Shown: one piece after another, positions 9,961-56,180 of the stretch
Layout of the letters: each line of letters opens with the position of its first letter
Position numbering within the stretch: the stretch's first letter is position 1
Source: Botryllus schlosseri
Taxonomy: Eukaryota
Assembly: GCA_051294905.1 (NCBI GenBank)
Contig: CM119371.1
Coordinates: forward strand, 19,346,001-19,406,000
Direction of reading: 5' to 3'
DNA length: 60,000 nucleotides
Notes under the pieces: generated by a model
The model's input: the letters and a program-made list of their open reading frames with translations, nothing else
Told to the model about the DNA's origin: nothing
Database searches by the model: none
Program-made: the position numbers and the translations under genes

Positions 9961-10347
9961 TCATTTCAATATGAATACACTGTTCAATTGTATACTGATG
10001 TTCTGTACCTACAAGAAGTTTTTCAAATGTCTGTCGGTGAGTCTTGGTCGCAATTAAGTTATGAACACAGACGTAACAATGAACAATTTTCGGAGGTATG
10101 CAATCATTTTGAAAAATCGAAAGTAGGATCATTGTTATGGTTATGGCAAAACTGGCAAATGGAAATCTTGAAAACAATTTCAATACCATAATTGGAAATA
10201 TCCACACCATACCATACTTGCACATTACCCTATTCAATACCGAAATTTCGTTCCATGCCCTGACTTTAACTTCTACTTCGGTAGCAAAGTCAATCACTTG
10301 GTCTTTGCCCGCCCCCAATCTTAACTCATCGAACTTGTGACAGGAGC

Positions 10348-27284: not shown

Positions 27285-27753
27285 TGAGTCAATTTTGTAT
27301 GGACTCGAGACTAGGTCTACCAAGACAAGCATTTCATTGAAATTTCGAGAATTAGTAAAGTCATCATACTATTATTATTTCGTCTATCAGTACCGGTTCT
27401 TGAATATGCTTCCAGAAACTGTTGAAAGTGAGGAAAATTAGTCTATTATGAATGCGAAGCATTCGATATCACCGAGCAGAGTAAAAAGTGGGCTTCACAT
27501 GACATTATGTCGGAACGGAACAGCCAAACACGATGACTTGTACCCGGACTCGAGTCAAAACACTATGACGACTCGGACTCGACATACTCAGGGATATATA
27601 GAACTATAGAACTATATATCCCTGGACATACTACCTCTGTGACTTGGGCTTGACTCGGTTGCGAATTGAAAATGACTAGACTTGACTCCAGTCAAAACTA
27701 TAAAAGTGAGATTGACTTGTTACTCGGAACCTTGTGACTTGGTTACAACCCTG
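27285..27753 (+). mobile_element. GACTC-rich hAT-type MITE copy
   Basis: Ends ttggttacaaccctg; colinear with the family. Confidence 0.75.
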
Positions 27754-29339
27754 TCGGAACACCACGATGGCAGCAACTACTGAATTTCTGCACGGCGACT
27801 TGGATGAATGTCCGACTTGTCCGTGTTTTCGTTCTTACCCCACTGCCTTTTTGTACTGCGGGTTTTCGTTGTGTTCTTCGGCGATCTCCGCATATACAGA
27901 TTTCAGTAATTGCGCCATTTTCGCTGGTGGATTGATGGAACAGTCAGTGAAATGCTACCTTATGACCCACAAAGACTTTTGGTTCAGATTCATATTGAAT
28001 TTATTTCATGTTTCAATTAGCTCTCACGAACCGGCATTTCTCGAGTAAAGGGCGTAGGCTATCTGATGTTGTGATAAACATAAGTATTGATATCAATGTT
28101 GGTCCTTAGAAATTTTTGAAAGCAATTTACAAGCACTGCAGTAGTCGGATATAATGAAGATAGGGTGTTGACACAAATCATCATCATTGGTTTATAAGCA
28201 GTTTTCATCAGTTCAATAGGCCTACACCACACAAATGCAATACAATGAAAAGATATAGGAAGATGTCGAATTGGGATGGTGTTTAGATCAGTCACCTCTT
28301 GGCTAAGAGTAGCCGATGTCAATTAAGAGGCATGTACAATTGTGAATGCACAAGTTGTACACTGGATGAAAAGTAAATCCAACATGTAGCATAAATGGAC
28401 AATTTGGCTCCTGGTACAGAAATCGAGGATTATAGCTCCCATCACCATATCCATCGTAACAATACACATATTCAAATAAGACTTTTAAGTTGTCTAATAT
28501 TATAACGAGCGACGACAAAGACTGTTGACATGTGTCGGTAGCGGCAGTCGATATACGTCAGATCGCGGTCCGTTAACACCGAGGGCCGACTCGTATTCAA
28601 CATCCTGCGACAGCAGTTGAGCAGTATGTCAAATATGATAACTATAACACTGGTCAACAAAATGAAGAAAAAAAATTAGGCAGAACATTTGAGAGCCGTT
28701 TCTGGGGTTTTTGAGGTTGCTGATTACGAATATCACATTAGTTTTGTCAGATTGGCTCTTTGTCAGAAGAGATCCCCCGATCAAGGATAATTCGAGGATT
28801 ATCATCGAAAAGCTCACATGACTCCGCTTTTACTGGTCGAAATTAGCCACATTTGTTTTGCATCGTTTAGATTTTTTTTTCTTCCAATTTTCCCTAATAA
28901 ATTAAAGATTTCAATTGGATATGCGGAGTCTATTTATACTTGTTAGAACTGAACCATATTTGGTGTGCAGTGTTTTTTAGGGTAACCTGACAATTTAATC
29001 AGTGAATGGCTGGAATCCGGGAAAAAAACGTTATTTTTGAACAGCCCTAATGGTCATTGGTCAGTTTATCATGAACATTAGGTGTCCAGGTAGTTCATTG
29101 CGACTGTGTCCTGGTATGCGGTCGTAGGCCACATAAGTAAGTAATCGAAGTGCCCCCGTGAATAGCAGAAAGTTGGCCTTCCCTGCAGAAAAACGGCTGC
29201 ATACATTACATTTGGGGTTGGTTTCAATTTTTTAGGGTCGATCGGTCCGCCAAATATCTTTTGAAATTTTGCCGGTCCCCGAGGTGAAAAAGGTTAATAA
29301 CCACTGGCCTACATCACCGTTTGATGGACAGTCCGCGTT

Positions 29340-31130
29340 ACTAACGATACCGCATTGTTTGCTTCAAGCTTCAAGCTTCCAGTAGCCTACTGACACGATG
29401 ATATAACACAACACATAATCAAGTAACGAGCTGTATTGCGTGGACATAAGAATCATGAAAATGAAATGAGATAAAATTCATACAGTAGTGCGTTCATTCG
29501 TTCGTATGAGAAGATCAGCAATTTTTGCCGCCTCCATCTTTAATTGGAATCGCTCCCGTTCGATATGTAGCAATTCCGTCTGCACCAGATGCTGCGCTCT
29601 CAGCAAATCCATCTGGCTAGGCGGGCGTCGGCATGTATGCGTATGGTTCTTTCTACGAAAAAGACAGGATCTTGTTGAACCACAGTTAAATCAGAAAGTC
29701 CACGGTCCCCGTGCATTTACAGCATAAAAACATCGAATATGTTGTTCAACCGATCTGTAATTTCGTTTCAGATAGCTAGATAGAACTTGAACAAGTTTAC
29801 ATGTTATATTTGTTACGCGAATTCTCTCAATCAATGTAGGCTATGTTGTAGGCCTATAGGTTATATTTGTATAGCCTACTCCGTATTATACGCCATCAAT
29901 ATCCGCACAGAAGACATACGGAACTAATTAGCCACGGTCCATTCTTATGGCCCCGTATTCACTACAAATGGTCAGGTCAAGTTCATATTAGGCTACGCCC
30001 TTTTAATTCACGTTTTCAGGGGTTATGAAGCATTTCGAACTGCGGAGACCCCATGGATTGTTAATATAGGTTTGCTGGATACTCAACTCATGCGTTACAC
30101 GCACCGTACCAGTAGCCAGCACCATGCCAGTGCCAGTATATGGTATATGCCAAGTGAACTCGTCCGTCTTCGCGTATCGCGCCATATACAACCGCGTACA
30201 GCCGTATATTCATTATTAGCTCCTTGAACTCATTTCGTTATCCACTCTATATCAAATCGATTAATACATAATATCGGAGGCAAGCCGTAATTAGGCCTAC
30301 TATTGTAGGCTATTTGTCCACTACTATGTTGGAGATGCCAGGAAGAAGCGTTACGCGGGACATATCTCCATCCGACGCCAATGCTAAGTTGAGTGTATGT
30401 ATTGTATATATAATTAGGCCATAACTTGGGAAATTGGGCTTACTACTGTAGCACGTTATCAAGCAACAGCACGCAAAGTAAGGATGGAATCAGCGAGGAA
30501 GTCGATATGTACTTTTTACAGACATAATTGATAAATAATAGGATATAGACCTATAGATTTTATTTCAAGCAACACCGAGCGCACGCTGTTCGCGTGAAAG
30601 GAAGACGACGGAAAAGTATTCTCTGCAAAACAGATCTATCACTATCACATATATAGAATAAATCTGTGATCTTCGTATCTGGTGCTGCTTCCGTAACATT
30701 GGAAACGAGCTGCTATGCCAGAAGAATTTATAGTTCTAGTTCTGGATATCCCTGTCACCCAATTAACCTACATATCAATCATATACAACAAATCATACTT
30801 GATATTTTTCAAAGCATTGAGGTTAAATCTTCTAAAACTTTCATACCGACGTGCTACGTCCTACGCATACCTATTTTTCGGTTTATTTCTCGTTATTGAC
30901 ACCGCCCGGGATTTGATGATCTTCTTCCGTAGAATCTGATGCCATTTGTCCTTCTCATTTCTTTTTGTTCCTTCACGGCTACTGTATTTCATTGTTTGCT
31001 TGTGAATTTCTGTCGTCCTTGACGCAGGTATAACTTAATTGTAAGCTGCTTCTGACTGAGACGCTGAAAAGTGTATGGAAGCTGCTGTATTCCGGCCGTG
31101 ATTACGTTCGGTGTGATGATTACCCCAAGT
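29340..31130. mobile_element. Possible decayed PIF/Harbinger-like element (duplicated at ~38205-40000)
   Basis: - strand fragments KRNEKDKWHQI (Myb/SANT-like) and QMDLLRAQHLVQTELLHIERERFQLKMEAAK (coiled-coil tail); no termini identified. Confidence 0.3.
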
Positions 31131-31789
31131 GAAAAGTGGTTAAACTAAATTAACAATCATGAGATCATTGCTAATTTGGTTTCGAGATTCCCACACTCAG
31201 TAGACTGGACTCTCAGTTGACATACACTTTGGCAAGCACAAGAAAATCAGGAATATTTTTATTATTCATTTAAAGTGCTTTTTTATCGATTGCCCTCACT
31301 GGTCGTGGTCATGGTCATGTATTGTTCGCCCGACGTTTTCTCGTAGTTAATTTCACGAGCCGAAGCGCGCTGCATCGCTTTTTCCGCTATCGTTTTAGCT
31401 TCATACCTTCGATGTTATACGGAGTACGTGGACCTACGAACTATGGCACATTCTAGAAATGGACTCCCAATCCAAATCAGCCCTGATGAGGCCAGGTTCT
31501 GGAATCATGAGCATGAGCATGACCCCATCCCACTCCAATAAATCAATCATATACCCAATATCAGTATCATCGATTCAAAGCACCACAAGATTGCCTAACG
31601 AGGAAAATATAGGAAGGAGTAGAAACGATTGAGTGGTCTTTTAATCAGACACCTACACATGCTCCCAGCTAGAAGATACAAAAAAGACGCATTTCCACTG
31701 AATGAAAAGCAACATAATTTTGACTTGAATGTGGCTAGAGAAGTGGTCAAAGCTAATAAGCTACACCCCTGCTGGCCATACATCATGAA

Positions 31790-32090
31790 TCTCATTGTCA
31801 CGGGGCCTGCATGAGAGTTAGTAAGCGTTGCTACTCAATTCTATGCCTATGCCGTTTGCTGGTAGCTGAACGACGACTTCCACCTAATCGGCCATCTAGT
31901 GCGGCATCAAGACGAGCAATGAGCTGCCGCCATCATCAACCACATTCCCGCGGAGCAATGGCGCAGAGGTGGCTGGAATAGAACAACACGGCGCTCGACC
32001 ATGGAGACCGATTTGGCGCAACGCGGACTGTCGCTCGAAGACGCCCACGACCGCCTACGCTGGAGGCGCTTAACACGAGTCCGAAACTGA
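31790..32090 (+). mobile_element. RTE-clade LINE 3' fragment (second copy ~40655-40957)
   Basis: RRL/LIGHLVRH...RRGG..RTT....ETDL...AHDRLRWRRL* with a frameshift and a stop, typical of an RTE ORF C-terminus. Confidence 0.7.
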
Positions 32091-32716
32091 TTCTCTTGAT
32101 GTTCTTTTGTTTCCTGCTTTCTTTTGCCCTTTTTATTCAATTGAAAAGTCGATATATATATAAAGCAGGTTAGAGACTATGTTTGACTATCATGATAATG
32201 GGGCCATTTCACGCATCTACTCTGAAAATTTCACGCATAAAATGCAGCGAACTTATCTCAAAACTACTTTCTGCGATTTGCGAAATCCGAAATGCAAAAA
32301 GTAAATATTTTGCCACAATAATTTCAAGTAGAAGTAGTTTAAAATCATAGCCATTTGAGTATAGGTAGTATAATTATCCAGAACCTACTTGAGTATTTGC
32401 CGATCCGAGCGAGATAATGTAATGGCGATGCGTCCTGCTTCTCGATCCGTAGGACGTGGGTTCGATCCCCGGCCGGGTCAGACCAAAGACTCGAAAACTG
32501 GTATCCGCAGCTATCTTGCTAATCAATCAATCAGGTTTAATAATATTTTCATCGTTTCAAAACATCACAAGACTGCTGCGATACAATGAAAAGATAGGAA
32601 GGTGTCGAAACAACTCGGAGTAGCCTTTAAGATCAGACACCCACCGTAGCCTAGGCGAAGTAAAGAAGACGAGGCATGCACATGCACACTGAAAGAAAAG
32701 TAATGTAGACAAAAGG

Positions 32717-33661
32717 GGGGAGATGTGGTACCGATGAGACACTGGGACCGAATATACTTGAAAAATTATCTATGCTAATCCCATTATTACAGTGCGATAC
32801 TTTGTCTACAATGGCATGGTGGCAGAATCTTTCCTCACATGCAAAAAAATTCGACCTGCGTGAGTTATGGGGTCTGTGACAAATGATGTACATTTTAGGG
32901 GTTGTAATATAAATTTGGATCAACATATACATTTTTCAATATCACCTTCCAGACTAACAATCCCGCAGTAATTTGTGATGTGAAGTATAGCGCTCGTATC
33001 AGGTTGTATGATGGCACATATTTTTGAATCAATTGAATTACATAATTTATAGGGTGGGGGACCTATGGCACCATAGCCAAATCAAGCAAAATAGTTGAAC
33101 CAACTAATCACTTGACAACAGAAACACGCCGCCTACATATATAGAGGCTGTAAATCATAGTTGCCCGTGGTGTTTTATCACTATTACGAGGTATTTTAAA
33201 GTCAAAATGTCGATTTTCGGGTAATATGTATGTAGCATTAATTTTGTAAGTTTCAGCAGAAATCAAAACGTGATTTTATCCCAACATTTGAGTTGATATT
33301 TTCTATTTTATTCCCGAAGGTGGGGAGGAAACATTCTTCATTGGCTTGCTGTAGCTTAGATTATAGCACACAATAAAACAAGTTGAAAAAATTTGAGTTT
33401 TGAGCGTATGTCTCTTGTCTCATAGGTCCCATGCTCATGTGCCATTGGACCCACCGGGTGGGGAGCGATATGATACGATCGAGCAACAAATTTTAAACGT
33501 TTCTAAATATTTTTGGAAAAGGAGGATATCCATGTAAATGTCCGCGATAGGTAGAGCTTGTATCAAAGTGTTGAGAGAGCAAAGATCTTCTATTCTCGGC
33601 TGAAGATTTGAGCGCCAGAGATCATTTTGCAATTTTTCATCCATCGGTACCATATCTCCCC
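32717..33661. mobile_element. Non-autonomous TIR DNA element
   Basis: ggggagatgtggtaccgatg ... catcggtaccatatctcccc. Confidence 0.7.
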
Positions 33662-33754
33662 GATAAGACGCAAGCGACAAAATGAGGTGGCATGTGGCGG
33701 AGGGCGGGGTCGATGGTAGGTCGTGATCCGGTAATCCTGAAGGCTGGCTAGTAT

Positions 33755-34039
33755 TCATTTAGAAGAAATTGCTTGTATTTCGACTTGAATGCGGACATGC
33801 TCGACGACTGTCGGATAGCCGGCAATTAATATGCTGTTCCACAATTGGGGTCCCGCATACTTGATAGAGCAATGCGTTTTCTTGTATTCCGTCCTGCTCA
33901 TATGATAGTTGTTCTTCGTTGACGCGCGTGTGCTGTACTTGTGCGCTGTGGTCTCCGATGTGAAGTAGTCGTTGAAATTTGAGGGACATTGACCGCAATG
34001 GAACTGATGCATAAACCTGGCAATTTCTAGCTTCCTCAT
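33755..34039 (-). mobile_element. CR1/L2-type LINE ORF2 C-terminal fragment (second copy 42621-42905)
   Basis: HKYSTR...SIKYAGPQLWNSI motif; its 3' UTR recurs at ~28140-28640 and ~51660-51940; (TTGA)n tail near 32522-32533. Confidence 0.75.
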
Positions 34040-35042
34040 ATCTTTTATGTTTGTTTAGCTAGGCGCTCAGCGTCCGTGGATAGCATGTAGGAGAAAAACA
34101 CGGGGGCGAAGACTAGGGGACCTTACGGTCGTATCGCATCTCCGACGTCAAAGCATCTCGATGGTGCAGTCGAAAAAGAATATCATATCTCTATTTGGAA
34201 AAAAGTAGTATTTTGTTACCTGTCACCTCTGCCGCAAGGTGCTGCGCGTGACTCACATGCCAGCACGAAATAACGCTACTGGACCCCTACGCCCTACGGC
34301 AGGGGCGGGCAACTTCTCCAGTCGGCGGGCCGGATATAGCAAAATTAAGTACTTGGAGGGCCGGATTGCTGAATCGACACATTATTCGCCAATTTATCCA
34401 CATACACAAGGAATAAATCGTATTTAATGAATGTATTTTAACGACAGTAATGGCACTTCAAAGCCAGTTCTCGCCGATAATGACGAGGATATAATGTGGA
34501 TTTGAGAACAGCATTGTCATACAGGCGCCGCCATGTCTGCTTCTCTCTGATCATAGTGTCCTATATAGTGTGGACACAAGCAAATCTCACGGCTCAGTGA
34601 AATTGGTCTACGTCAAACTTTCCATTTGGTCAAAGGCAATTTGACGGTAGTTTTTGACCGACTTGCCGGGCATTAAATTTGATCAAACGGGTATCAATCG
34701 AAAGCTACCGCGGTGCTGGTTGCAAAAATATAAATTCTATTCTGCTCGAGGTTCTGGAACCCCCAAAATCAGCCTTGAATGTTGCATTGTAACGGAGTTT
34801 GGTATTGTGACGCAGCCATGCCGTCTGAGCAGCTCAGGAGCAAGCGCGCACGAGAGTAAGAGTGTGAATGCTCAATCGGTTGCGCAACAATGGCTAATAC
34901 GCTTGCGGTTTACTCTGCTCCTCACCTGCTCCCAGACGGCATAGTTGCGTCACAATACCAAACTCCGCTACGATGCAACATTCGAAGCTGATTTTGGGGG
35001 GTTCCAGGACCACGAGCAGAATAGAATTTATATTTACGCAAT

Positions 35043-36759
35043 CAGGGCCGTAACAGCACTTCGTCAGCCCCCCCCCCCAAAAAAAAGTTGGTCTTGGGCC
35101 CCCCATATGGTGATAAACCGAACTTCTGGTTCGCCCCCCAGACCCCCCTTTGGCAATCCGATCTTTGCCGCTACTTGTCATCTAAATTGGTTGTCCGTTT
35201 AGTAAGTCGGATATTCCCGTCTGGACGCGCGAAGCGCGAAAAATTTATATAATTCATGATTGAACCGGTCAATATTATCGGGCGTACACCCGTTGGCAGG
35301 AATGAAACAGCACTTCGTCAGCCCCCCCAAAAATATTGGGTCTTTGGCTCCGGTAGGGTGATAACCCGCCCTCTCCCCCATCACGTTGTTCGCTTTTGTC
35401 ACGAAATTAGTCGTACTGTCTAGTGAGCCAGCGCTAAGCGCGAAAATTTTCGAAAATTCATGATTAGGGCTGGGCAAAATCGAGTACCTGAGTGATTCGA
35501 TTATGAATCACGTAATATGCTTCGAGTCGAGTCGAGTAATCGAGTATCACCCATTATGACGCCATGACATAATATAATACGTCAAAGTTCAAATATCTGA
35601 ATCTTATGTCACCACAAATAATTTAATGCCTGTTATCCTTCTCATAAATGATACTTTGGTATTTTTTCGACCATACGGATTTCATTTCACTTGGTGATGA
35701 TGTTGTGGGATAATCATGACTTCGGAAATGTGCTACATCCAGTAACCTTCGTAGCTTTGTAGCCTACCATATGTTTCGTATGCTACGATACAGCCAATCA
35801 AGGTTCCAAGGCTTCTACAGTGAAAATGAGTATCGAAACTATTATTCTCGTTGATAAATTAACATTCATTGGCGAGAAGAGTACAATTTCAGTACTCGAA
35901 AAAATCGTGCTTTACTACTCGACTCGAATCATTAAAATTAATACTCGATTCTGATTCGAGTACTCGAATCATTGTGCCCAGCCCTATTCATGATAAAGGC
36001 AGCCAATAAGATCTGGAATTGCATATATATTGCTATCAATTTCTTGTCCTCTCTGCTCACGTTATCAGATTTACCGGAAACTGTAGGGTCCGTAAATAAT
36101 AATTAAACATCTTCGGACGGGCGGACCCGTTGGTATGACTTCGTTACATGATGTGACGTGACGTGACCTCCTGTCTGCTATATCAAAAAATATAGAATAG
36201 CCCAAACGTACTAAACTAAAAGACGCAGACGATTTCAAATTGATATTTCTTCACTGGCATATAATTTTTCCCTGCGGGATGGTATTTTTTGTCTTCTGAG
36301 GTTCAGATTGCCAAGACAGGAACATTTGGCGCCAGTCATTTAGGCGCCTATTGACAATTAAACCAATATGTATTTTGTATATATAACGAAGTTTTCGGAC
36401 TGCGTAAGGGTGGTCCTTTTCGGCCAAAGTTTTCGCACTGCCGATCGTTCTGGAACACTACCTGGAGTCGCATATAATATGTCCTAAATCGTTATATGTC
36501 TTGGTGCGGTAATGGCCAACGCCGATATGTCTATTTCTATAAATCTTGCGTGTTTTTTCTTGGAGGAAGAGTAGGCTACAAATATTGAACATGTTTGGTA
36601 GCTTGACATCGCGCACAGCGCGAAAATTTTTTTAAAAAGTTGCATAAATTTTTAAAAAATGCTCTTTAATTTATGCTAATTCACGAAATAATTTTGGGCC
36701 CCCTTCGAGCTCGCCCCCCCCCCAATTGAGGGGTTTGGGATGCGGCAGTTACGGTGCTG
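35043..36759. mobile_element. hAT-type element (nest level 3)
   Basis: cagggccgtaac / gttacggtgctg; TSD tacgcaat at 35035-35042 and 36760-36767. Confidence 0.8.
35465..35986. mobile_element. hAT Ac-like MITE (nest level 4)
   Basis: tagggctgggca / tgcccagcccta; TSD ttcatgat. Confidence 0.9.
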
Positions 36760-39700
36760 TACGCAATTAATACCGCGATAGCTTTCGATTGATACCCGTT
36801 TTATCAATTTTAATGCTTGGCAAGCCGGTAAAAAATTTCCGCCAAATTGCCTTTGACGAAAGGGAAAGTGTGACGTAGACCTATTTCACTGAGCCGTGAG
36901 ATTTGCTTGTGTACACACCTTATAGGACACTATGCTCACGGCGCAATCCCTAATTAATATTTCAAGGTGTTCGATAAGACCGGTACCCCAAATTTACCAA
37001 TATATCAATTCATCAGGGATGAGTAGGTGATGAGATAGCGTCGTTGTTCAACTGTGTGACCTATTTTATCTCGATATTAAATTCATGCGGACCGCGGCAT
37101 CTACGAAATTTGAAAAGCGGCCCACGACCCGTTTTGAGTTGGCGTCCCCTGGCATAAGCGGTGTCTTACAAAAGCCTACAAGTGTGCCGTACTACAAGTC
37201 GGCGGTTACGGAATCAAAAATTAGAAATATCGGTCTGGTCTAAATGACCATTGTAGTCTACCAACACCATGATTACCACAAACGATATTAGGGTTGAGTA
37301 CATCATAAATGCCGATAATGCAAGTCTTCTCGCTTCGACGAACTTACGTGCAAGCTCCACTCGCACGCTGCGCATACAAATAACATACAGTCACTAAAAT
37401 TTGACGTAGTAAGCAAGTAGCGGGGTATCTCGGCAGACTGTAGCCGCGGGCCACATTATCATATAAGACGGAAAACTGTCCGCGGGCCGGACAAAATCCC
37501 TTCGTGGGCCGGATCCGGCCCGCGGGCCGTATGTTGCCCACCCCTGCCCTACGGCATTTCGGAATCTGATGGACGTTACAAAGGCAGCTAGTGATTTGCG
37601 TATGCTGTATTATTCTAATTTAGACATAATTCGTTGGATTGCTAAAACATCATCATCTAATGATTAGGATCTAATCGCTTATCGTCTTTCACGACCGAAT
37701 CTACAAACGCACCGGCGATCGCTGCAATGTAATGTGCAGCAAAGCGTGCAACCCGGTAAATTCGAAAGTAAACTGAGGATAAGAGGAGTGATCATAATAA
37801 TGCTTTCAATGTCTTGTGAAAAGGAATGGACTTGTGAAGTATGTGGAATGAAATCTGAATCAGGAATCCACCCCAAATGCTTTTCCATGATAGCGTGGCA
37901 CTGTGAGTGTAGCGTGTATGCCTGTTTATATTTGTAAAAGTCCTCATAATTTTGGTGCTATAGGCCTACTATTGTTTTCAGGAGTTGACAAATATCAGCT
38001 GCTGGGTAGAGGTTTTCAAGGTTCCCGACTGTTGCAGAAAATTGGCCTTCCCTGCAGAAAAACGGCTGCATACATTACATTTGAGGTTGGTTTCAATTTT
38101 TTAGGGTCCATCGGTCCGCCAAATATCTTTTGAAATTTTGCCGGTCCGCGAGGTGAAGAAGGTTAATAACCACTGGCCTACATCACCGTTTGATGGACAG
38201 TCCGCGTTACTAACGATACCGCATTGTTTGCTTCAAGCTTCAAGCTTCTAGTAGCCTACTGACACGATGATATAACACAACACACAATCAAGTAACGAGC
38301 TGTATTGCGTGGACATAAGAATCATGAAAATGAAATGAGATAAAATTCATACAGTAGTGCGTTCATTCGTTCGTATGAGAAGATCAGCAATTTTTGCCGC
38401 CTCCATCTTTAATTGGAATCGCTCCCGTTCGATATGTAGCAATTCCGTCTGCACCAGATGCTGCGCTCTCAGCAAATCCATCTGGCTAGGCGGGCGTCGG
38501 CATGTATGCGTGTGGTTCTTTCTACGAAAAAGACAGGATCTTGTTGAACCACAGTTAAATCAGGAAGTCCACGGTCCCCGTGCATTTACAGCATAAAAAC
38601 ACCGAATATGTTGTTCAACCGATCTGTAATTTCGTTTCAGATAGCTAGATAGAACTTGAACAAGTTTACATTTTATATTTGTTACGCGAATTCTCTCAAT
38701 CAATGTAGGCTATGTTGTAGGCCCATAGGTTATATTTGTATAGCCTACTCCGTATTATACGCCATCAATATCCGCACAGAAGACATACGGAGCTAATTAG
38801 CCACAGGGTCTATTCTTATGGCCCCGTATTCACTACAAATGGCCAGGTCAAGTTCATATTAGGTTACGCCCTTTTAATTCACGTTTTCAGGGGTTATGAA
38901 GCATTTCGAACTGCGGAGACCCCATGGATTGTTAATATAGGTTTGCTGGATACTCAACTCATGCGTTACACGCACCGTACCAGTAGCCAGCACCATGCCA
39001 GTGCCAGTATATGGTATATGCCAAGTGAACTCGTCCGTCTTCGCGTATCGCGCCATATACAACAGCGTACAGCCGTATATTCATTATTAGCTCCTTGAAC
39101 TCATTTCGTTATCCACTCTATATCAAATCGATTAATACAGAATATCGGAGGCAAGCCGTAATTAGGCCTACTATTGTAGGCTATTTGTCCACTACTATGT
39201 TGGAGATGCCAGGAAGAAGCGTTACGCGGGACATATCTCCATCCGACGCCAATGCTAAGTTGAGTGTATGTATTGTATATATAATTAGGCCATAACTTGG
39301 GAAATTGGGCTTACTACTGTAGCACGTTATCAAGCAACAGCACGCAAAGTAAGTATGGAATCAGCGAGGAAGTCGATATCTACTTTTTACAGACATAATT
39401 GATAAATAATAGGATATAGACCTAGATTTTATTTCAAGCAACACCGACCGCACGCTGTTCGCGTGAAAGGAAGACGACGGAAAAGTATTCTCTGCAAAAC
39501 AGATCTATCACTATCACATATAGAATAAATCTGTGATCTTCGTCTCTGGTGCTGCTTCCGTATCGTTGGAAACGAGCTGCTATGCCAGAAGAATTTATAG
39601 TTCTAGTTCTGGATATCCCTGTCACCCAATTAACCTACATATCAATCATATACAACAAATCATATTTGATATTTTTCAAAGCATTGAGGTTAAATCTTCT

Positions 39701-42700
39701 ATAACTTTCATACCGACGTGCTACGTCCTACGCATACCTATTTTTCGGTTTATTTCTCGTTATTGACACCGCCCGGGATTTGATGATCTTCTTCCGTAGA
39801 ATCTGATGCCATTTGTCCTTCTCATTTCTTTTTGTTCCTTCACGGCTACTGTATTTCATTGTTTGCTTGTGAATTTCTGTCGTCCTTGACGCAGGTATAA
39901 CTTAATTGTAAGCTGCTTCCGACTGAGACGCTGAAAAGTGTATGGAAGCTGCTGTATTCCGGCCGTGATTACGTTCGGTGTGATGATTACCCCAAGTGAA
40001 AAGTGGTTAAACTAAATTAACAATCATGAGATCATTGCTAATTTGGTTTCGAGATTCCCACACTCAGTAGACTGGACTCTCAGTTGACATACACTTTGGC
40101 AAGCACAAGAAAATCAGGAATATTTTTATTATTCATTTAAAGTGCTTTTTTATCGATTGCCCTCACTGGTCGTGGTCATGGTCATGTATTGTTCGCCCGA
40201 CGTTTTCTCGTAGTTAATTTCACGAGCCGAAGCGCGCTGCATCGCTTTTTCCGCTATCGTTTTAGCTTCATACCTTCGATGTTATACGGAGTACGTGGAC
40301 CTACGAACTATGGCACATTCTAGAAATGGACTCCCAATCCAAATCAGCCCTGATGAGGCCAGGTTCTGGAATCATGAGCATGAGCATGACCCCATCCCAC
40401 TCCAATAAATCAATCATATACCCAATATCAGTATCATCGATTCAAAGCACCACAAGATTGCCTAACGATGAAAATATAGGAAGGAGTAGAAACGATTGAG
40501 TAGTCTTTTAATCAGACACCTACACATGCTCCCAGCTAGAAGATACAAAAAAGACGCATTTCCACTGAATGAAAAGCAACAGAATTTTGACTTGAATGTG
40601 GCTAGAGAAGTGGTCAAAGCTAATAAGCTACACCCATGCTGGCCATACATCATGAATCTCACTGTCACGAGGCCTGCATGAAAGTTAGTAAGCGTTGCTA
40701 CTCAATTCTATGCCTATGCCGTTTGCTGGTAGCTGAACGACGACTTCCACCTAATCGGCCATCTAGTGCGGCATCAAGACGAGCAATGAGCTGCCGCCAT
40801 CATCAACCACATTCCCGCGGAGCAATGGCGCAGAGGTGGCTGGAATAGAACAACACGGCGCTCGACCATGGAGACCGATTTGGCGCAACGCGGACTGTCG
40901 CTCGAAGACGCCCACGACCGCCTACGCTGGAGGCGCTTAACACGAGTCCGAAACTGATTCTCTTGATGTTCTTTTGTTTCCTGCTTTCTTTTGCCCTTTT
41001 TATTTAATTGAAAAGTCGATATATATATAAAGCAGGTTAGAGACTATGTTTGACTATCATGATAATGGGGCCATTTCACGCATCTACTCTGAAAATTTCA
41101 CGAATAAAATGCAGCGAACTTATCTCAAAACTACTTTCTGCGATTTGCGAAATCCGAAATGCAAAAAGTAAATATTTTGCCACAATAATTTCAAGTAGAA
41201 GTAGTTTAAATCATAGCCATTTGAGTATAGGTAGTATAATTATCCAGAACCTACTTGAGTATTTGCCGATCCGAGCGAGATAATGTAATGGCGATGCGTC
41301 CTGCTTCTCGATCCGTAGGTCGTGGGTTCGATCCCCGGCCGGGTCAGACCAAAGACTCGAAAACTGGTATCCGCAGCTATCTTGCTAATCAATCAATCAG
41401 GTTTAATAATATTTTCATCGTTTCAAAACATCACAAGACTGCTGCGATACAATGAAAAGATAGGAAGGTGTCGAAACAACTCGGAGTAGCCTTTAAGATC
41501 AGACACCCACCGTAGCCTAGGCGCAGTAAAGAAGACGAGGCATGCACATGCACACTGAATGAAAAGTAATGTAGACAAAAGGGGGGAGATGTGGTACCGA
41601 TGAGACACTGGGACCGAATATACTTGAAAAATTCTCTATGCTAATCCCATTATTACAGTGCGACACTTTGTCTACAATGGCATGGTGGCAGAATCTTTCC
41701 TCACATGCAAAAAAATTCGACCTGCGTGAGTTATGGGGTCTGTGACAAATGATTTACAATTTAGGGGGTTTAATATAAATTTGGATCAACATATACATTT
41801 TTCAATATCACCTTCCAGACTAACAATCCCGCAGTAATTTGTGATGTGAAGTATAGCGCTCGTATCAGGTTGTATGATGGCACATATTTTTGAATCAATT
41901 GAATTACATAATTTATAGGGTGGGGGACCTATGGTACCATAGCCAAATCAAGCAAAATAGTTGGACCAACTAATCACTTGACAACAGAAACACGCCGCCT
42001 ACATATATAGACGCTGTAAATCATAGTTGCCCGTGGTGTTTTATCACTATTACGGGGTATTTTAAAGTCAAAATGTCGATTTTCGGGTAATATGTATGTA
42101 GCATTAATTTTGTAAATTTCAGCAGAAATCAAAACGTGATTTTATTCCAACATTTGAGTTGATATTTTCTATTTTATTCCCGAAGGTGGGGAGGAAACAT
42201 TCTTCATTGGCTTGCTGTAGCTTAGATTATAGCACACAATAAAACATGTTGAAAAAATTTGAGTTTTGAGCGTATGTCTCTTGTCTCATAGGTCCCATGC
42301 TCATGTGCCATTGGACCCACCGGGTGGGGAGCGATATGATACGATCGAGCAACAAATTTTAAACGTTTCTAAATATTTTTGGAAAAGGAGGATATCCATG
42401 TAAATGTCCGCGATAGGTAGAGCTTGTATCAAAGTGTTGAGAGAGCAAAGATCTTCTATTCTCGGCTGAAGATTTGAGCGCCAGAGATCATTTTGCAATT
42501 TTTCATCCATCGGTACCATATCTCCCCTATAAGACGCAAGCGACAAAATGAGGTGGCATGTGGCGGATGGCGGGGTCGATGGTAGGTCGTGATCCGGTAA
42601 TCCTGAAGGCTGGCTAGTATTCATTTAGAAGAAATTGCTTGCATTTCGACTTGAATGCGGACATGCTCGACGACTGTCGGATAGCCGGCAATTAATATGC

Positions 42701-43060
42701 TGTTCCACAATTGGGGTCCCGCATACTTGATAGAGCAATGCGTTTTCTTGTATTCCGTCCTGCTCATATGATAGTTGTTCTTCGTTGACGCGCGTCCGCT
42801 GTACTTGTGCGCTTTGGTCTCCGATGTGAAGTAGTCGTTGAAATTTGAGGGACATTGACCGCAATGGAACTGATGCATAAACTTGGCAATTTCTAGCTTC
42901 CTCATATCTTCTATGTTTAGCTAGGCGCTCAGCGTCCGCGGATAGCATGTAGGAGAAAAAACACGGGGGCGAAGACTAGGGGACCTTACGGTCGTATCGC
43001 ATCTCCGACGTCAAAGCATCTCGATGGCGCAGGCGAAAAAGAATATCATATCTCTATTTG

Positions 43061-43464
43061 AAGAGCTTCTTGGAGGTACAGAACTTCAATATACAATTAA
43101 ATAGTATATTCATATTGAAATGAACCCGAATATTTTCGGCTGACACTCGTCAGGGGTAATCGTCAGCAACTAGTAGAGAATTGGAAAGAACATTGTATAT
43201 CAACAATCGTATCACAAAATATGACGTCACCAGCATGAAATTTCGAATGAGAGAACGTTCAATGTACTATTTTTAGGTGATACACGAACTCCTTTTGTTG
43301 ACAGAGTTTTGGTTGGTGTATTTTGATAAAAGTTGATTCCAAGGCACACAAATGGAATTGTGAACGACCGCGACCTACGATTCGAAATCGGTCGTCTCGA
43401 TAATTATTCGCACAAATCGGATTATCCAACAGATGTTTGCCAATGGCAGAATTAATGGCCTTTG
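43061..43464 (-). mobile_element. 5'-truncated Penelope-like retroelement (GIY-YIG C-terminus, 3' pLTR, hammerhead)
   Basis: 11-bp TSD atctctatttg; absent from copy A; 43462-43259 reads KAINSAIGKHLLDNPICANNYRDDRFRIVGRGRSQFHLCALESTFIKIHQPKLCQQKEFVYHLKIVH* without interruption. Confidence 0.88.
43124..43157 (-). ncRNA. Minimal type I hammerhead ribozyme motif
   Basis: ACCC CUGACGA G UGUCAGC C GAA AAUAUU C GGGU, identical to 9662-9695. Confidence 0.82.
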
Positions 43465-46400
43465 ATCTCTATTTGGAAAAAAGTAGTATTTTGTTACCTG
43501 TCACCTCTGCCGCAAGGTGCTGCGCGTGACTCACATGCCAGCACGAAATAACGCTACGGGACCCCTTCGCCCTACGGCATTTCGGAATCTGATGGACGTT
43601 ACAAAGGCAGCTAGTAATTTGCGTATGCTGTATTATTCTAATTTAGACATAATTCGTTGGATTGCTGAAACAGCATCATCTAATGATTAGGATCTAATCG
43701 CTTGTATAGTCTTTCACGACCGAATCTACAAACGCACCGGCGATCGCTGCAATGTAATGTGCAGCAAAGCGTGCAAGCCGGTAAATTCGAAAGTAAACTG
43801 AGGATAAGAGGAGTGATCATAATAATGCTTTCAATGTCTTGTGAAAAGGAATGGACTTGTGAAGTATGTGGAATGAAATCTGAATCAGGAATCCATCCCA
43901 AATGCTTTTCCATGATAGCGTGGCACTGTGAGTGTAGCGTGTATGCCTGTTTATATTTGTAAAAGTCCTCAAAGTTTTGGTGCTATAGGCCTACTATTGT
44001 TTTCAGGAGTTGAGAAATATCAGCTGCTGTGTACAGGTTTTCAAGGTTCCCGACTGTTGCAGTACAGTTTTACTTAGGAATTCAAATGAGCGCATTGTGT
44101 TATCAAATATTCAGATTTCCCCCAGGGTGAAGGTTAAGCATGCATATTGAATACGCGAATTACTACTATAAAATTCATAAATTATAAGGCAATGGCATGA
44201 AATATTTATAATGCTTCATTGAATATTTCAGGGCTGGCATGAATTATAGCTAGCCTGTATAAATTACTATTTGATGTCCTCACAATTTTGTGTGTCCAGA
44301 ACTCTGGAACATCCCATATTGAGCTTGTTATACATATTTATGCAGTAGGTCTTGTGTTGATGTTTGTTGTTTTATTGAAATTCGGACTTTTGAATTGTCT
44401 CGAAGATATATTAGTCAAGGATTATATTTATGACAATTGGATCGATATCTGAATACGGTTATCTTACCTGGACCTGGAGATATAGCCTATACATTTTTAG
44501 AAAAATAATTTATGAGACAACGCATGATTGGAGCTATGTTGGTCATTCTTGGGTATTTATCTGGAGGCTATTATGTAGAAAGTGATATTGGTCAAAGTCA
44601 AAAAAGGAATTTACTGCTTCAGTTGTGCTTTATCGTGTTTTGAATTAGCCGGATTTTGGATACCGGTAATCTGTTTTGATTTTCCTGTTATAAATCTCAC
44701 AAATAATTCATGAACAAGGCATTAGCTATTAGTAGGGTATTGAATTCAAATTCTGGCATATATCCATTAGGCTGTTATTGCAACAACGCCGATGTAATCC
44801 CGATTAAGCCTAATATATTATTATTTTAAAATACTGGTACCATACTATGATGTAAAAACATTATAGTCATTGTGAATTTTCTTTTCCCGTGGGCCTTGGT
44901 CAATAATTGGATTAATATAGTTGTTGCATATTTTATAAACTTGAGCACTTGAATCTGATACAGGTATGGAGAGTAGTATACAGAGTATGGATACCGGTCT
45001 AGTAGACCATGAGGTTTCCATACTAGATCGAATTTCCGTAGCTGACACATTGCACGAATTATCAGAGTGCAGTAGATTAATGTTTTACTATTTTTAGGAA
45101 TTCAAATCGTAAAACATTGTACGTCGAAGTAAGGTAGCTCCTTTTAAAGTAAATAACAATCTTTCATGGAAGGTGCAAGGTATTCTGGGTCTGAGTTATT
45201 GTCAAAGGTTTAGGAATACAGGGCAGTCTGAAGCCTATTTTCCTGTTATTTAAGAATGCCCGATTCAGTTATTACTTATTACCATGTTTTACAATCATGA
45301 ATTTGGACAATTACTGGAGCGCATGACTCACCCTAGCATAATAGGCTTTGCAGGCATGTCATTTTATTGACCCTAATTTCACATTTATTCTGATGTTGGA
45401 GGGAATAGATGGAATTTTGGCATTTTCATGGGCATCCGTTTGCTGCGTCAATCAGAATCTTTACTGTAGGCCTACCAAGAGTGTGGAAGCCCCGCAAAAG
45501 ACTGATACTTTGATAGTATTTGTTCTATTTTTGAGTGCTGTGCTCGATTTAATGTGTTTGAAGTAATCTGCGGTGTTGTGAATCATCGTTGATTGATACG
45601 TTGGCTTGGCTTCCATTAGTGTTTATGATAACATTGCTGAATTAGGAATAGGCTATTTACAATGCCTGGTGGAGACTGCCGTGTTTAAATCGCAAATTTC
45701 TTAACATAAGAAGAGATAGAAGTTTATTTTGACACAAAATTAATTTATGACTGGTATGGATGTTATCAGGCTATTTGTCTTCAATTTTTCATTTCTGCTA
45801 ATGCCCCATTTGCTTATTCACGACTATCAGATTGTTATAATATAATTTCTGTCAGCCGTGGATACATTTAGGTTACTTGGTTTTAATTCCAAGGTTTACA
45901 AATTGAATTAGTTTTCCCTCGCTAAGACAACGTCTCTGTCTGTGTTTAGCGTCATCACTAGAATGCTTCACTTAACAAATATTCAGTGGCATAAGAATCA
46001 GAGACCTATTTGACTTATGTATGTATATTGCCAGACAGCAATGTGTACATTGTGCTGTCATGTGTCAAACCAATTTTATGCTAGAGTTGACTCGGTTGTA
46101 GTTTTTCATGGTTGAATTTGTACCTCAGGGAATGTCACCATGACTTGTCCATAAAACTATGTCAGACCGGCTGATGAAGAAGGTGTGTGACCATCAAACG
46201 CTTTTGGCATTTATCTATTCCACTAACTCATTGTTTAACTTTCCCTCAAGTGTGGCCGTCTACTTTGAAAGAGATGACATCTCAACTCTATCTGCGGCGC
46301 TTTGAGTCCACTTGAGCTGTATTTGTAACCACAATTAGGGTATCTATTGACTTTCAAAAATAGGACTCCCTTTGTGCCGCATTGTCGGATTGGGACGCAC

Positions 46401-48829: not shown

Positions 48830-49731
48830 GACACTTGTCATGATTGGAGTCATGACTTGACTCAACTTGTACAAGAGTCATTTTGTATGACTCGAAACAA
48901 GTCATATGACTCGAGACTAGGACGGTCAAGACGGACATTTGATTGTAACTTCGTAGAACAGTGAAGTCGCCCCATTATTGGTATTTCACCTATCAGTCCG
49001 GATACTTGGAAAATAAGGCCAGAAACTGTTAGGACTGACAAAGATTAGATATTATGAATGCCAGACATTCTATCAGGGTTGTAATGACTCGAGTCATGAC
49101 TCGACTCGAGTCACGATTTTATGATGACTCGACTTGGCTCGAGTCATTTCTCAAAATATGGAAATGACTCGACTCGACTCGATTCAATCTGTGTATTGAC
49201 TCGACTTGGACTCGAATCATTGCGCATGACTCGAACCAAGTCATATGACTCGAGACTCAGACGGCCAAGACCCTGCTATTTCGAAGAATGGTAAAGTAAC
49301 CACACTATATGGATTTCGTCTATTGGTACTAGTACTTGAAAATGCGACCAGACACTGCTAAAATGAGGAAAATTAGTTTATTATAAATGCGAACCATTCG
49401 ATATCACCAATAGAGTTATAAAAAGTGGATATAACAAGACTTTAACTGGAAACTGGTCCGTCAACACAATGACTTGGACTCGAATCGAGTCATAATACCA
49501 TGACTCGGACTCAAGCCTCTGCTTGCTGACTTGGACTCGGACTTGACTCGGTGGTGAATTGAAAATGACTCGACTTGACTCGAGTCAAAACTATAAAAGT
49601 GAGATTGACTTGTGACTCTGAGCCTTGGGACTTGGTTACAACCCTGCATTCTATATTACCCGAGCAGAGTTGAAAAAGTGGGATGAACCGGAGTGAATTC
49701 AAAACTGGACCGTGAACACAATGACTAGGAC
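48830..49731 (+). mobile_element. GACTC-rich MITE with a same-family copy nested inside (49074-49646)
   Basis: Inner copy cagggttgtaa...ttacaaccctg with perfect TSD cattctat. Confidence 0.88.
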
Positions 49732-55904: not shown

Positions 55905-56180
55905 ATATTCCACACAGAGAGAGAGAGATATGATAGCCTATTCTTTTTCGCCTGCACCATCGAGATGCTTTGACGACGGAGTTGCGATACGGCCCCATGA
56001 GGTCATCTAGTCTGCGCCCCCGCTTTTTTCTCCTCCATGCTATCCGTGATTGCTGAGCGCCTAGCAGGATAGCTGCGGATACCAATTTTCGAGTCTTTGG
56101 TATGACCCGGCCGGGGACCGAACCCACGACCTACCGCTCGAGAAGCCGGACGCATAACCATTGCACTATCTCGCTCGGTA
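55905..56180 (-). mobile_element. Full-length tRNA-derived SINE
   Basis: A box tagtgcaatgg, B box gggttcggtccc, body and (TC)n tail; homologous to the copies at 2257, 32405 and 41270. Confidence 0.85.

Follow-up and report, generated by a model that had tools for sequence, protein, structure and literature searches.

The locus studied here is a 404-bp insert at positions 43061-43464 of the window, the 60,000-nucleotide stretch of Botryllus schlosseri DNA that was analysed. The insert is present in copy B of a duplication and represents an already known type of element, namely the 3' terminal part of a Penelope-like element (PLE) from a very young and very abundant family. It matches base for base the last 337 nt of a coding unit and then 67 nt of the next unit, and has three parts: the end of the endonuclease frame (67 codons), a hammerhead-type motif preceded by a spacer of 92 nt, and the start codon plus 17 codons of the next unit. 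The insert and its target sites show the following features:

34187-34197, no strand: unfilled target site in duplication copy A, a single ATCTCTATTTG (exact match and flank comparison)
43050-43060, no strand: left copy of the 11-bp target-site duplication (TSD), ATCTCTATTTG (sequence repeat and unfilled site)
43061-43464, minus: 5'-truncated PLE copy of 404 bp, unit position ~2356 to 2692 plus 67 (collinear with the unit)
43262-43464, minus: C-terminal half of the GIY-YIG domain, 67 codons at the end of the RT-EN ORF (frame, longer copies and fold model)
43261-43259, minus: stop codon of the RT-EN ORF
43222-43229, no strand: palindrome TGACGTCA in the pLTR spacer between stop codon and hammerhead (kept in families A and B)
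43061-43113, minus: ORF of the next unit, start codon (43113-43111) plus 17 codons and 2 nt, MNILFNCILKFCTSKKL (homologue starts and unit collinearity)
43465-43475, no strand: right copy of the 11-bp TSD, ATCTCTATTTG (sequence repeat and unfilled site)

An earlier note on this DNA had described the insert as found in copy B only, with an 11-bp TSD and an empty site, and the intact unfilled site in copy A bears this out. Both flanks joined through one TSD give a predicted unfilled site that occurs once in the window, at 34179-34208 with 0 mismatches (0 expected from shuffles, n=100), and the flanks of copies A and B are identical at 588 of 605 positions. PLEs have target-site duplications that vary in length; the 11 bp given here refer to the window insert only. 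The element had been thought to end after the hammerhead; this view has to be given up, since the final 53 nt belong to the next tandem unit, as its start codon and 17 codons. The outermost 24-37 nt or so of this part make up the optional 'tail'. That the palindrome TGACGTCA acts as a promoter is a guess.

We also looked at DNA reads over the site. One contig in each of two runs (depths 18.9 and 2.8) connects 43049 with 43465, so that 415 nt (the insert and one TSD) are passed over, and then runs 436 nt into the downstream flank of copy B with zero differences, on upstream anchors of 19 and 21 nt that fall under the 31-nt rule. The depth-18.9 run additionally holds a 49-nt unitig (depth 8) across the filled left junction, and two further DNA runs have no contig crossing the insert site. 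These contigs are a hint, not a finding, of an unfilled copy-B allele, through polymorphism or heterozygosity.

Element family and encoded protein

Between its two stops (43259..43468) the minus-strand frame in the window is 69 aa long, 67 of its codons lie within the insert, and the peptide (SAIGKHLL...LESTFIK...PKLCQQKEF) reads as first claimed. Longer copies in the same genome carry this frame on into an 848-aa ORF with RT and, at the C terminus, a GIY-YIG domain. The tandem unit has a period of 2692 bp; the 848-aa ORF is open in 2 of the 3 units of one array, and ORFs of 845 aa are open in two diverged families.

The RT assignment comes from sequence profiles, with RVT_1 matching the 848-aa ORF at E 7e-9 (36 bits, cut-off 29.6) and the DKG motif of PLE-type RTs present (...ITKPDKGSGV...). 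The same layout is common to 884 homologues at E<=1e-3, and those of full length (826-866 aa) start with M..ILKFCTT..LFKYFRKRY, in agreement with the ATG placed here. The endonuclease domain is not called by sequence: Pfam gave nothing at E<=10 on the 69-aa peptide, Pfam and NCBIfam found RT only on the full ORF, and a PDB sequence profile on the ORF found RT and telomerase only. For this reason a fold model of the last 177 aa was built (mean pLDDT 85.8). It aligns with the I-TevI catalytic domain over 88/94 residues (Z 8.8, rmsd 2.7), and with UvrC GIY-YIG and T4 EndoII at Z 7.8 and 7.3. In Foldseek, the top 7 rows, and 9 of the top 10, are chains deposited as GIY-YIG (UvrC) domains and rank 8 is T4 EndoII, with top-row E-values of just 0.07-0.49. 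Among the matches listed, PF01541 is precomputed for 2/120 homologues. The CCHH motif of canonical EN+ PLEs, in which two cysteines fall between GIY and YIG (PMC8557442), is present (VVYEYRCHCDCGYVGRT), and C60, C62, H81, H120 and C127 are invariant in 26 sequences. The longer-copy ORF, the RVT_1 match and the I-TevI alignment together support the reading of the peptide as the C-terminal half of a PLE GIY-YIG endonuclease.

The linker, inspected by eye, has one Cys in the ~60 aa before the GIY motif and shows no CX2-5CxxC zinc finger, the lack of which marks Penelope/Poseidon as against Neptune/Nematis. The pLTR-forming tandem units are shared with the EN+ Penelope/Poseidon-type PLEs (Evgen'ev and Arkhipova; Arkhipova 2006; Craig et al. 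2021, PMC8557442), as are heavy 5' truncation, adjacent inverted 5'-truncated copies and an optional ~24-37 bp tail (PMC8557442). A hammerhead beside the ORF start and an A/T-rich nick site containing ATT are further likenesses. The placement in the Penelope/Poseidon clade is tentative, being made from motifs and not from a phylogeny.

A first look at the genome gave at least 2172 matches to the 404-bp insert, and the 40 that were scored are all at least 99% identical to it. The window copy differs from each of 10 other copies at 2/404 positions and has 2 private changes in 404 when compared with all 29 other best copies. By the former measure the family is young. A first look of this kind gave only 62 candidates for the element's 5' 301 nt, against at least 2172 for the 3' end, and the points of 5' truncation vary among the 30 best-matching loci. 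A 609-bp 'full-length' unit was discarded as an artefact, since the query was itself a truncated copy.

Two other origins of the insert can be considered. Two paralogues alone do not fix the polarity of an indel, and the 404 bp could have been deleted from copy A rather than gained by copy B. We give this almost no credence, because the segment belongs to a dispersed family that has its own ends, because the 11-bp direct duplication on either side of it is present exactly once in copy A, and because the divergence of the insert (2/404 private changes) is lower than that between the flanks (17/605). It might alternatively be a non-autonomous retrozyme or a SINE-like hammerhead element instead of a piece of an autonomous PLE, as it is short (404 bp), hammerhead-bearing and highly repeated, and as animal retrozymes are thought to derive from PLE pLTRs (bioRxiv 10.64898/2026.07.22.740005). 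This too is very improbable: the insert is collinear with the coding unit over that unit's last 337 nt and continues with 67 nt of the following one, the 5' ends differ between copies in the manner of truncations, and none of the 30 best-matching loci has a small tandem array of the insert. Animal non-LTR retrozymes are small non-coding tandem repeats that carry a hammerhead and have a defined unit length, and here we find a single copy with a TSD that is collinear with coding sequence.

The hammerhead-type motif and its relatives

The motif is located on the minus strand and, together with its upstream pseudoknot partner, occupies 43166-43124:

43124-43157, minus: hammerhead-type motif (sequence pattern and related-family alignment)
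43162-43166, minus: CUGAC, 5' partner of a predicted pseudoknot with loop II (alignment and complement counts)
43157-43154, minus: helix I 5' strand, ACCC
43153-43147, minus: core CUGACGA
43146-43138, minus: stem-loop II, GUGUCAGCC, with loop GUCAG at 43144-43140
43137-43135, minus: GAA box
43134-43129, minus: palindromic helix III, AAUAUU
43128, minus: C17, with the predicted cut between 43128 and 43127
43127-43124, minus: helix I 3' strand, GGGU

The window motif has the CUGANGA and GAAA boxes, G10.1-C11.1, A15.1-U16.1 and an H at position 17. The hammerhead string, its core and the palindromic stem III stand as first described, but the single G-C stem II with a 7-nt loop does not, and gives way to a stem of 2 bp, a loop of 5 nt and a predicted pseudoknot. 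The motif is identical to that of units with open ORFs; it had been called intact, which is right in this sense and says nothing of cleavage. A loose core pattern has 4 matches in the window against 2.77 expected, and 30/100 shuffles reach 4. This is the level of chance, and it is family membership and covariation that raise the motif above it. A covariance-model search had been proposed, and Rfam returned no hammerhead over the whole window at the gathering score or at E<=10; the 8 weak rows at E<=10 lie elsewhere in the window and are miRNA/snoRNA-like chance matches. Since the motif has no helix III hairpin, the absent match was to be expected. Nested energy folding prefers two competing hairpins to the hammerhead, CUGAC/GUCAG over the core and CCGAA/UUCGG over the cut site (-12.2 kcal/mol).

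Judged from the alignments, the hammerhead core, helix I, helix III, the 2-bp stem II and the 5-bp pseudoknot covary across related PLE families. The pairing count is based on 21 distinct sequences; one row, ending after GAAAA at a junction, was excluded from the alignments. In this count 90.8% of cells pair, compared with 81.9 +/- 1.1 when shuffled (0/500) and 24-48% when slid, and 9 of the 14 pairs change on both sides. Helix I is found as ACCC/GGGU, CAUACU/AGUAUG and GUCCC/GGGAU, helix III as AAUAUU, AAGCUU, AACGUU and AAAGCUUU, and the core pair 3-8 as C3-G8, U3.G8 and U3-A8, with the family C relatives having mostly U3.G8 and not a Watson-Crick pair. G10.1-C11.1 is present in 20/21 distinct rows and A15.1-U16.1 in 21/21. 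The pseudoknot occurs as CUGAC/GUCAG, CCGAC/GUCGG and CUAGC/GCUAG; 94.3% of its cells pair, 3/5 of its pairs have changes on either side, and 18 of 24 sequences form it perfectly where 0.135 would be expected, all of which is to be read in the light of alignment rows cut at the best upstream complement, a choice that favours the pseudoknot columns. In the window's young family A a U/C mismatch takes the place of the second stem II pair (6/21 distinct rows), which leaves that family one Watson-Crick pair in stem II. The CUGANGA/GAAA core is retained in diverged families, as the earlier note's reading would have it, and distant relatives at 29-36% aa identity have textbook minimal hammerheads with a long stem II at the same location. 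Families A and B are 77% identical over the 130-nt spacer and 66% over the ORF.

The motif shares a number of traits with the minimal hammerheads of PLEs (PMC4209133), which are likewise of type I, with CUGANGA and GAAA boxes, G10.1-C11.1, covariation of C3-G8 with U3-A8, a short helix I, a loopless palindromic helix III that suits dimer pairing, and dual motifs on opposite strands 100-700 bp apart. It differs from them in stem II, which has 6-8 bp and a bulged base after A9 in the published examples but here has 2 bp at most in a 9-nt stem-loop, and in its loop II, which is predicted to pair with an upstream segment. In the pseudoknot-braced hammerheads of Perreault et al. 2011 (PMC3088659), the sides of stem II and stem I are linked by a base-paired tertiary contact of ~5-6 bp, and a construct with a 1-bp stem II, very short as here, is compatible with fast cleavage. 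Those examples are for the most part of bacterial, phage or intronic origin, and monomeric, whereas our predicted motif, of type I and part of a retroelement, would have its pseudoknot partner in the 5' tail, with a loopless palindrome as helix III.

The PLE literature that we searched, which left out Lunse et al. 2017 on small PLE hammerhead variants, does not describe a variant with a 2-bp stem II and a pseudoknot, and two of the three supplementary files of PMC4209133 contain neither the stem-loop II strings nor the word 'pseudoknot'. We tentatively raise the possibility, without holding it to be probable, that there is a sub-clade, made up of the three open-ORF families here and metagenome relatives down to ~48% protein identity, in which a 2-bp stub stands in for the usual long stem II, its 5-nt loop is taken up in a covarying 5'-flank pseudoknot, and the motif lies exactly 14 nt upstream of the start; its youngest and most prolific family would have lost the second stem II pair.

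Probable insertion route and other copies in the window

The other family members in the window are older than the insert or decayed:

9624-9856, minus: older truncated copy, 91% to the unit, ending at +43 with no tail; left arm of a head-to-head pair, hammerhead motif intact
9852-10028, plus: right head-to-head arm, 92% to the unit, with tail; core CUGAUGA, one mismatch in helix I (GGCU)
15173-15254, minus: decayed 82-bp fragment, 84% to the unit, core destroyed (AUCACAA)
20585-20698, minus: one arm of a decayed head-to-head pair, core CUGACAA, AAAA replacing GAAA
20701-20776, plus: the other arm, a sixth family fragment with no core

The CTGAYGAGTGTCAGCCGAAA string of the window motif recurs at 9672-9691 (minus) and 9931-9950 (plus). 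The arm at 20585-20698 carries GUGUCGGAC with CCGAG upstream, which is an older version of stem II and pseudoknot. The count of five hammerhead-bearing copies given before holds, those at 9662, 9927 and 43124 being intact or nearly so and those at ~15212 and ~20615 having broken cores.

Inverted pairs like those at 9624-10028 and 20585-20776 are not peculiar to the window. An inverted partner is found within 1.5 kb at 10/30 loci, ending at query positions 367-384 of 404 and thus 20-37 nt short. Twin priming of the L1 type does not account for these pairs, as both arms hold the same 3' sequence. The arrangement agrees with the published PLE layout, which includes a pLTR, an inverted 5'-truncated copy and a tail of 30-40 bp (PMC8557442).

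In all copies examined the sequence passes through the predicted cut site and goes on for the first 30-67 nt of the following unit. As both sides of the cut site are joined in them, their templates were evidently uncut, and the start of the next unit at the insert's end makes it likely that RT began inside an RNA longer than one unit, the signature known from published PLE 'tails'. The architecture also agrees with the published internal initiation of RT (PMC11167929). At 15 of 28 distinct loci the sequence goes on like the next unit for at least 4 further bases, and at the window insert these microhomology bases pre-existed in the target. Comparison with PAc of Anolis (Frangieh et al. 2024, PMC11167929) shows several differences. 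The RT start sites are ~30-43 and ~67 nt into the ORF here and 111-118 in PAc; the ORF of PAc starts inside stem II, whereas here the hammerhead lies wholly upstream of the AUG, with the cut 14 nt before it. The frequent target-template microhomology of 4-9 nt is a further difference from known PLEs.

We conclude, with a probability of about 0.9, that the insert is a 5'-truncated, dead-on-arrival copy of a canonical EN+ PLE, likely made by target-primed reverse transcription of a longer-than-unit transcript, with a motif for which self-cleavage is predicted at a point 14 nt upstream of the AUG. The endonuclease would have nicked the plus strand after ...CTATTTG, so that the left TSD copy is the 3' end of the presumed primer. 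The last 6 bases of this primer (TATTTG) could pair with CAAAUA in the RNA, 68-73 nt past the cut site; cDNA synthesis would then start within the ORF of the next unit and halt after 404 nt, and a second nick 11 bp off would produce the target-site duplication. As regards the ribozyme, the sequence is compatible with a type I hammerhead fold in which helix I has 4 bp and stem II 2 bp. The stem II loop of 5 nt may form a pseudoknot by pairing with a segment that lies 4 nt upstream of helix I, and the palindromic helix III could pair between two copies. The motif would cut read-through or tandem transcripts to give an RNA starting 14 nt before the AUG, and the template RNA must, on this model, have remained uncut at its 3'-proximal motif.

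Does the motif cleave, and what would it mean?

The motif is predicted to cut itself. Raw RNA reads, with a depth of ~100-215 over the motif, show no pile-up of ends or starts at the predicted cut, in a library not designed for such ends. The reads are equal in both directions and 96% of them continue into unlike sequence, which suggests that the RNA signal is mostly passive read-through of dead copies. A further RNA run, labelled as another organism, gave no reads on the sequence.

It is possible, if rather doubtful, that the hammerhead-like segment is kept for a non-catalytic role, without cleavage in vivo, for example as a recognition site for protein binding or reverse transcription, as a translation element in the 5'-UTR, or as part of the pLTR promoter. 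The higher identity of the 130-nt spacer (77%) than of the ORF (66%) between families A and B, the predominance of U3.G8 in the family C relatives, the U/C mismatch in stem II of family A and the RNA ends that are not piled up at the cut site would all fit such a role. Published PLE hammerheads cleave poorly in vitro (PMC4209133) and are dispensable for insertion in vitro, where HHR mutants of a lizard PLE insert normally and no reads end at the cut site (PMC11167929). However, covariation is seen in all three helices (I, II and III), the bases at positions 3 and 8 change in step (C-G, U.G, U-A) as a hammerhead predicts, and G10.1-C11.1 and A15.1-U16.1 are present in 20/21 and 21/21 distinct rows. 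Relatives at 29-36% aa identity have textbook minimal hammerheads in the same place, and the lizard PLE motif does cleave when protein is present (PMC11167929). Pseudoknot-braced hammerheads are active, including one with a 1-bp stem II (PMC3088659).

At the level of the genome the insert falls under the routine annotation of repeats. The assembly is being shaped by a very young PLE family, of which there are thousands of dead tail copies and a few tandem arrays whose ORFs are open; it inserts in older repeats, and in segmental duplications after their formation, and a possibly unfixed insertion at the locus would serve as a marker. The copies spanning the cut site extend across thousands of natural insertions the in vitro finding that RT starts in unprocessed, longer-than-unit RNA, which they support, and the natural insertions add frequent target-template microhomology to that picture. 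The short pseudoknotted stem II is a compact natural variant for telling apart dimer, monomer and protein-assisted models of cleavage. If the pseudoknot makes the ribozyme competent as a monomer or gated by protein, it would separate cleaved, translatable RNA from uncut template RNA, and the long-debated hammerhead of PLEs would gain a testable role.

The insert, its target site and its surroundings

The earlier note had described a 404-bp Penelope-like (PLE) insert with an 11-bp target-site duplication (TSD), an empty site and a minus-strand frame of 67 aa, and all of these were recovered. When the flanks are joined with one copy of the flanking 11-mer, the resulting string has one further occurrence in the window, without mismatch, at 34179-34208 in copy A of the segmental duplication (0 matches expected in 100 shuffles), and the insert itself lies in copy B. 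The minus strand encodes the residues that had been quoted, in a stop-to-stop frame of 69 aa of which 67 lie within the insert. The duplication copies are identical at 588/605 positions around the insertion site; set against these 17 flank differences in 605, the 2 private changes in the 404 bp of the insert place the insertion after the duplication.

Features of the insert and related copies in the window
43061-43464, minus strand: 404-bp PLE insert with direct flanking repeats
43050-43060 and 43465-43475: 11-bp TSD ATCTCTATTTG flanking the insert
43464-43259, minus strand: 67 codons and stop, first segment in sense order
between stop and hammerhead region, minus strand: 92-nt spacer with the conserved TGACGTCA, second segment
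43222-43229: palindrome TGACGTCA in the spacer, kept in PLE families A (that of the insert) and B (a diverged one), at loci L046 and L047
43166-43124, minus strand: hammerhead and its upstream partner, third segment
between hammerhead and ATG, minus strand: 14-nt leader, fourth segment
43113-43061, minus strand: beginning of the next unit's ORF (ATG, 17 codons, 2 nt), fifth segment
9624-10028 and 20585-20776: two head-to-head pairs of copies

Repeat finding and mapping to the family unit confirmed all five copies previously counted in the 60 kb and added a sixth fragment, without the core, at 20701-20776. The string CTGAYGAGTGTCAGCCGAAA is found at 43134-43153 (minus), 9672-9691 (minus) and 9931-9950 (plus). 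A loose hammerhead core pattern occurs 4 times in the window against 2.77 expected, which is no excess over chance.

The insert sits in repeat-rich DNA, and no Pfam families were found in the frames neighbouring it. Open frames of 99 and 116 aa adjoin the insertion site (42621-42975, minus). They yielded no Pfam match and look like a LINE ORF2 C-terminus, and the PLE copy may have inserted into an older repeat here. The two arms of the duplication (29165-37979 and 38034-44004) are 97-99% identical. Copy A has ~3.2 kb extra between ~34301 and 37546. Part of this extra DNA is enclosed by inverted repeats of 176 nt (34548-34723 and 36763-36938; related arms at 21455-21673) and looks like a TIR-type insert in one duplication copy only. 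Four repeat copies that are 85-91% alike (2257-2335, 32412-32490, 41278-41356 and, inverted, 56062-56178) look like tRNA-derived SINE pieces. A hairpin-rich dispersed repeat family occupies 12721-13178, 15260-15697, 24717-25170, 27302-27754 and 48832-49647; weak miRNA-like Rfam rows in the last of these (49079-49250, E 2.5-5.9) are probably chance matches.

The parent element and its family

Matches to the insert at a spacing of 2692 bp revealed tandem arrays. In one of these, at locus L046, the units are 99.3% alike and an 848-aa ORF is open in 2/3 units; two more diverged families of this genome also have open ORFs, of 845 aa. The 848-aa ORF gave a Pfam RVT_1 match and has a DKG motif, and its C-terminal domain (...VVYEYRCHCDCGYVGRTSRRLQDRINQH...SAIGKHLL...LESTFI...) contains the residues of the window peptide. 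Sequence profiles called no GIY-YIG domain on either peptide or ORF. The last 177 aa, modelled by AlphaFold with the aid of 25 homologues (mean pLDDT 85.8), match the I-TevI catalytic domain with Z 8.8 and rmsd 2.7 over 88/94 residues, the UvrC GIY-YIG domain with Z 7.8 and T4 EndoII with Z 7.3, and the top Foldseek rows are also GIY-YIG domains, with weak E-values of 0.07 and up. By this model, the 67 aa of the window are the C-terminal half of the GIY-YIG fold. Longer copies extend the frame of the peptide into this ORF, in support of the proposed origin in a PLE with a reverse transcriptase (RT) and a GIY-YIG endonuclease (EN). A large protein collection holds 884 homologues at E<=1e-3, the best 64% identical and the full-length ones 826-866 aa long; a coral 'reverse transcriptase' is among the few named rows.

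In the L046 array the next unit's frame opens within the hammerhead, with the first ATG 14 nt past the predicted cut. Homologues in other organisms share this start position and its initial residues (M..ILKFCTT..LFKYFRKRY), and this ATG is therefore the real start codon, which in a tandem array yields the order of the insert: ORF end, spacer, hammerhead, leader and ATG. The spacer as a whole is better preserved between families A and B (77%) than the ORF is (66%). The TGACGTCA palindrome, which both families keep ~60-75 nt before the hammerhead, resembles a CRE site and may with the spacer be part of a promoter in the pLTR (the inter-ORF spacer region of tandem units). In the RNA run X22, 12 reads at L046 4230-4321 have a joint going back 92 nt, with ~22 other letters between, which points to expression of a variant whose spacer has an internal duplication.

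The genome searched (495.5 Mb in 219 contigs, the window included) gave at least 2172 first-look candidates for the 404-bp query. The family is young, as had been proposed: all 40 full-length matches that were scored are >=99% identical to the insert, and 10/29 other best copies have just 2 differences from it, a uniformity that is overstated because the sample consists of best matches. Both differences are private to the window copy, one being a CpG to TpG change. Most other copies are longer than the insert, with many different 5' end points, and only 62 first-look candidates came from the 301 nt at the 5' end of the longest copies; this is the gradient expected of 5' truncation. Two DNA runs, with one contig each, join across the insert and continue for 436 nt without difference into the downstream flank of copy B, and one of these runs also has the filled left junction. 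Since the upstream anchors of the contigs are just 19-21 nt long, this is only a hint of a copy-B allele without the insert.

The hammerhead motif

The sense-strand motif, CUGAC-gauu-ACCC-CUGACGA-GUGUCAGCC-GAA-AAUAUU-C-GGGU, is identical to that of units with open ORFs. We compared it with the other copies in the window, with two diverged families of the same genome (ORF nucleotide identity 66% and 85%) and with 80 metagenome loci holding relatives at 29-63% aa identity. In the core, in G10.1-C11.1 and in the palindrome the motif agrees with published minimal hammerheads, but it lacks their long stem II. In the metagenome relatives at 29-36% identity, the corresponding place holds a PLE minimal hammerhead of the classical form, with a stem II of 5-7 bp, an ACGU palindrome, C3-G8 or U3-A8, and an additional base following A9.

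A close clade (~48-63% identity, by aligned loci) has the 9-nt stem-loop II in common with the window motif. Within it, helix I is wholly different in sequence and keeps its complementarity (ACCC/GGGU, CAUACU/AGUAUG, GUCCC/GGGAU), and helix III is always a palindrome (AAUAUU, AAGCUU, AACGUU, AAAGCUUU). Positions 3/8 are C-G, U.G (metagenome loci L060, L068, L077 and L104) or U-A (L075 and L076), which looks, from these sequences, like a compensatory path via a wobble pair. At the second pair of stem II the clade has U-A or G-C, except for the window's family with its U/C, a mismatch that leaves stem II with one Watson-Crick pair. Every 5-nt loop II has its complement in a 5-mer that lies 8-11 nt before the core, and the pairing exists as CUGAC/GUCAG, CCGAC/GUCGG or CUAGC/GCUAG. 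In the window, the decayed copy at 20614-20658 has GUCGG/CCGAG and therefore descends from an older subfamily.

For rows that are related, that supplied the structure themselves and that were trimmed to start at the best complement, a perfect upstream complement is found in 18/24 sequences (0.135 expected from shuffles), and in 21 distinct rows 90.8% of cells are paired in the named structure, against 81.9 +/- 1.1 in shuffles (0/500 reach 90.8%) and 24-48% with slid partners. Both-sided changes affect 9/14 pairs, including 3/5 pseudoknot pairs. Pseudoknots between stems I and II are a common feature of hammerheads. Against activity speak the U/C mismatch, the preference of the window motif in nested folding for two competing hairpins, and an Rfam search of the window that returned no hammerhead. 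We regard the motif as a true hammerhead under selection, of a kind with a pseudoknot and a short stem II, for which cleavage is predicted. Acting on read-through or tandem RNA, it would create a 5' end that lies 14 nt ahead of the AUG.

In the RNA run X24, of which ~6% was read, the final ~200 nt have a raw depth of 100-215 in both directions, with 96% of reads running into unlike sequence; depth falls to 5-28 in the ORF and to zero beyond the RT start. The X24 reads list no place where many molecules begin or end, in a library design unsuited to showing a cut. Given the depth in both directions, the run-on reads and the lack of an end pile-up, most of this signal suggests passive transcription of dead copies, and nothing in it points to a cut. 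All copies join both sides of the cut site, and their templates were therefore uncut. The cleavage that has been published for PLE hammerheads is weak and takes place in dimers (PMC4209133; review PMC6765202), and one PLE motif cleaves only with the protein of the element and is not required for in vitro insertion (PMC11167929). For self-cleavage in vivo we would give about even odds.

Insertion and the place of the element among PLEs

The first cDNA strand would be the plus strand of the window, and the primer would then be ...ATCTCTATTTG-3', with its last six bases complementary to CAAAUA, after +67 (nt past the cut site) in the RNA. These bases pre-existed in the target, since the unfilled site already has them. 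Among the best-matching loci (L001-L030, 28 distinct insertion sites), 15/28 have 4-9 bases after ...CTCTT that match the next unit (CAAATA...), where the chance of >=4 is ~0.4%; the excess means that microhomology is favoured either by the nick site or by priming. A second nick 11 bp away would lead to the duplication. The resulting copy is truncated at 404 nt and dead on arrival.

Copies end at +67, or 20-37 nt earlier in inverted partners, and older window copies end at +34 and +43. An inverted, head-to-head partner with a shorter end lies within 1.5 kb at 10/30 loci. A published account of PLEs describes the same layout: partial tandems give rise to pLTRs, a 5'-truncated copy lies adjacent in inverted orientation, and one end has a 'tail' of 30-40 bp (PMC8557442). 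For an Anolis PLE the tail was traced in vitro to two adjacent internal RT start sites (PMC11167929).

All tested defining features of canonical EN+ PLEs are found in the window's family, and by its lack of a CX2-5CxxC linker the family would be of the Penelope/Poseidon type, a clade read from motifs only. Among the texts searched, we found no description of a short-stem II pseudoknot variant in PLEs. The insert is a real, well-supported and ordinary finding: its element is a PLE of an already known kind, with a ribozyme variant of modest interest.
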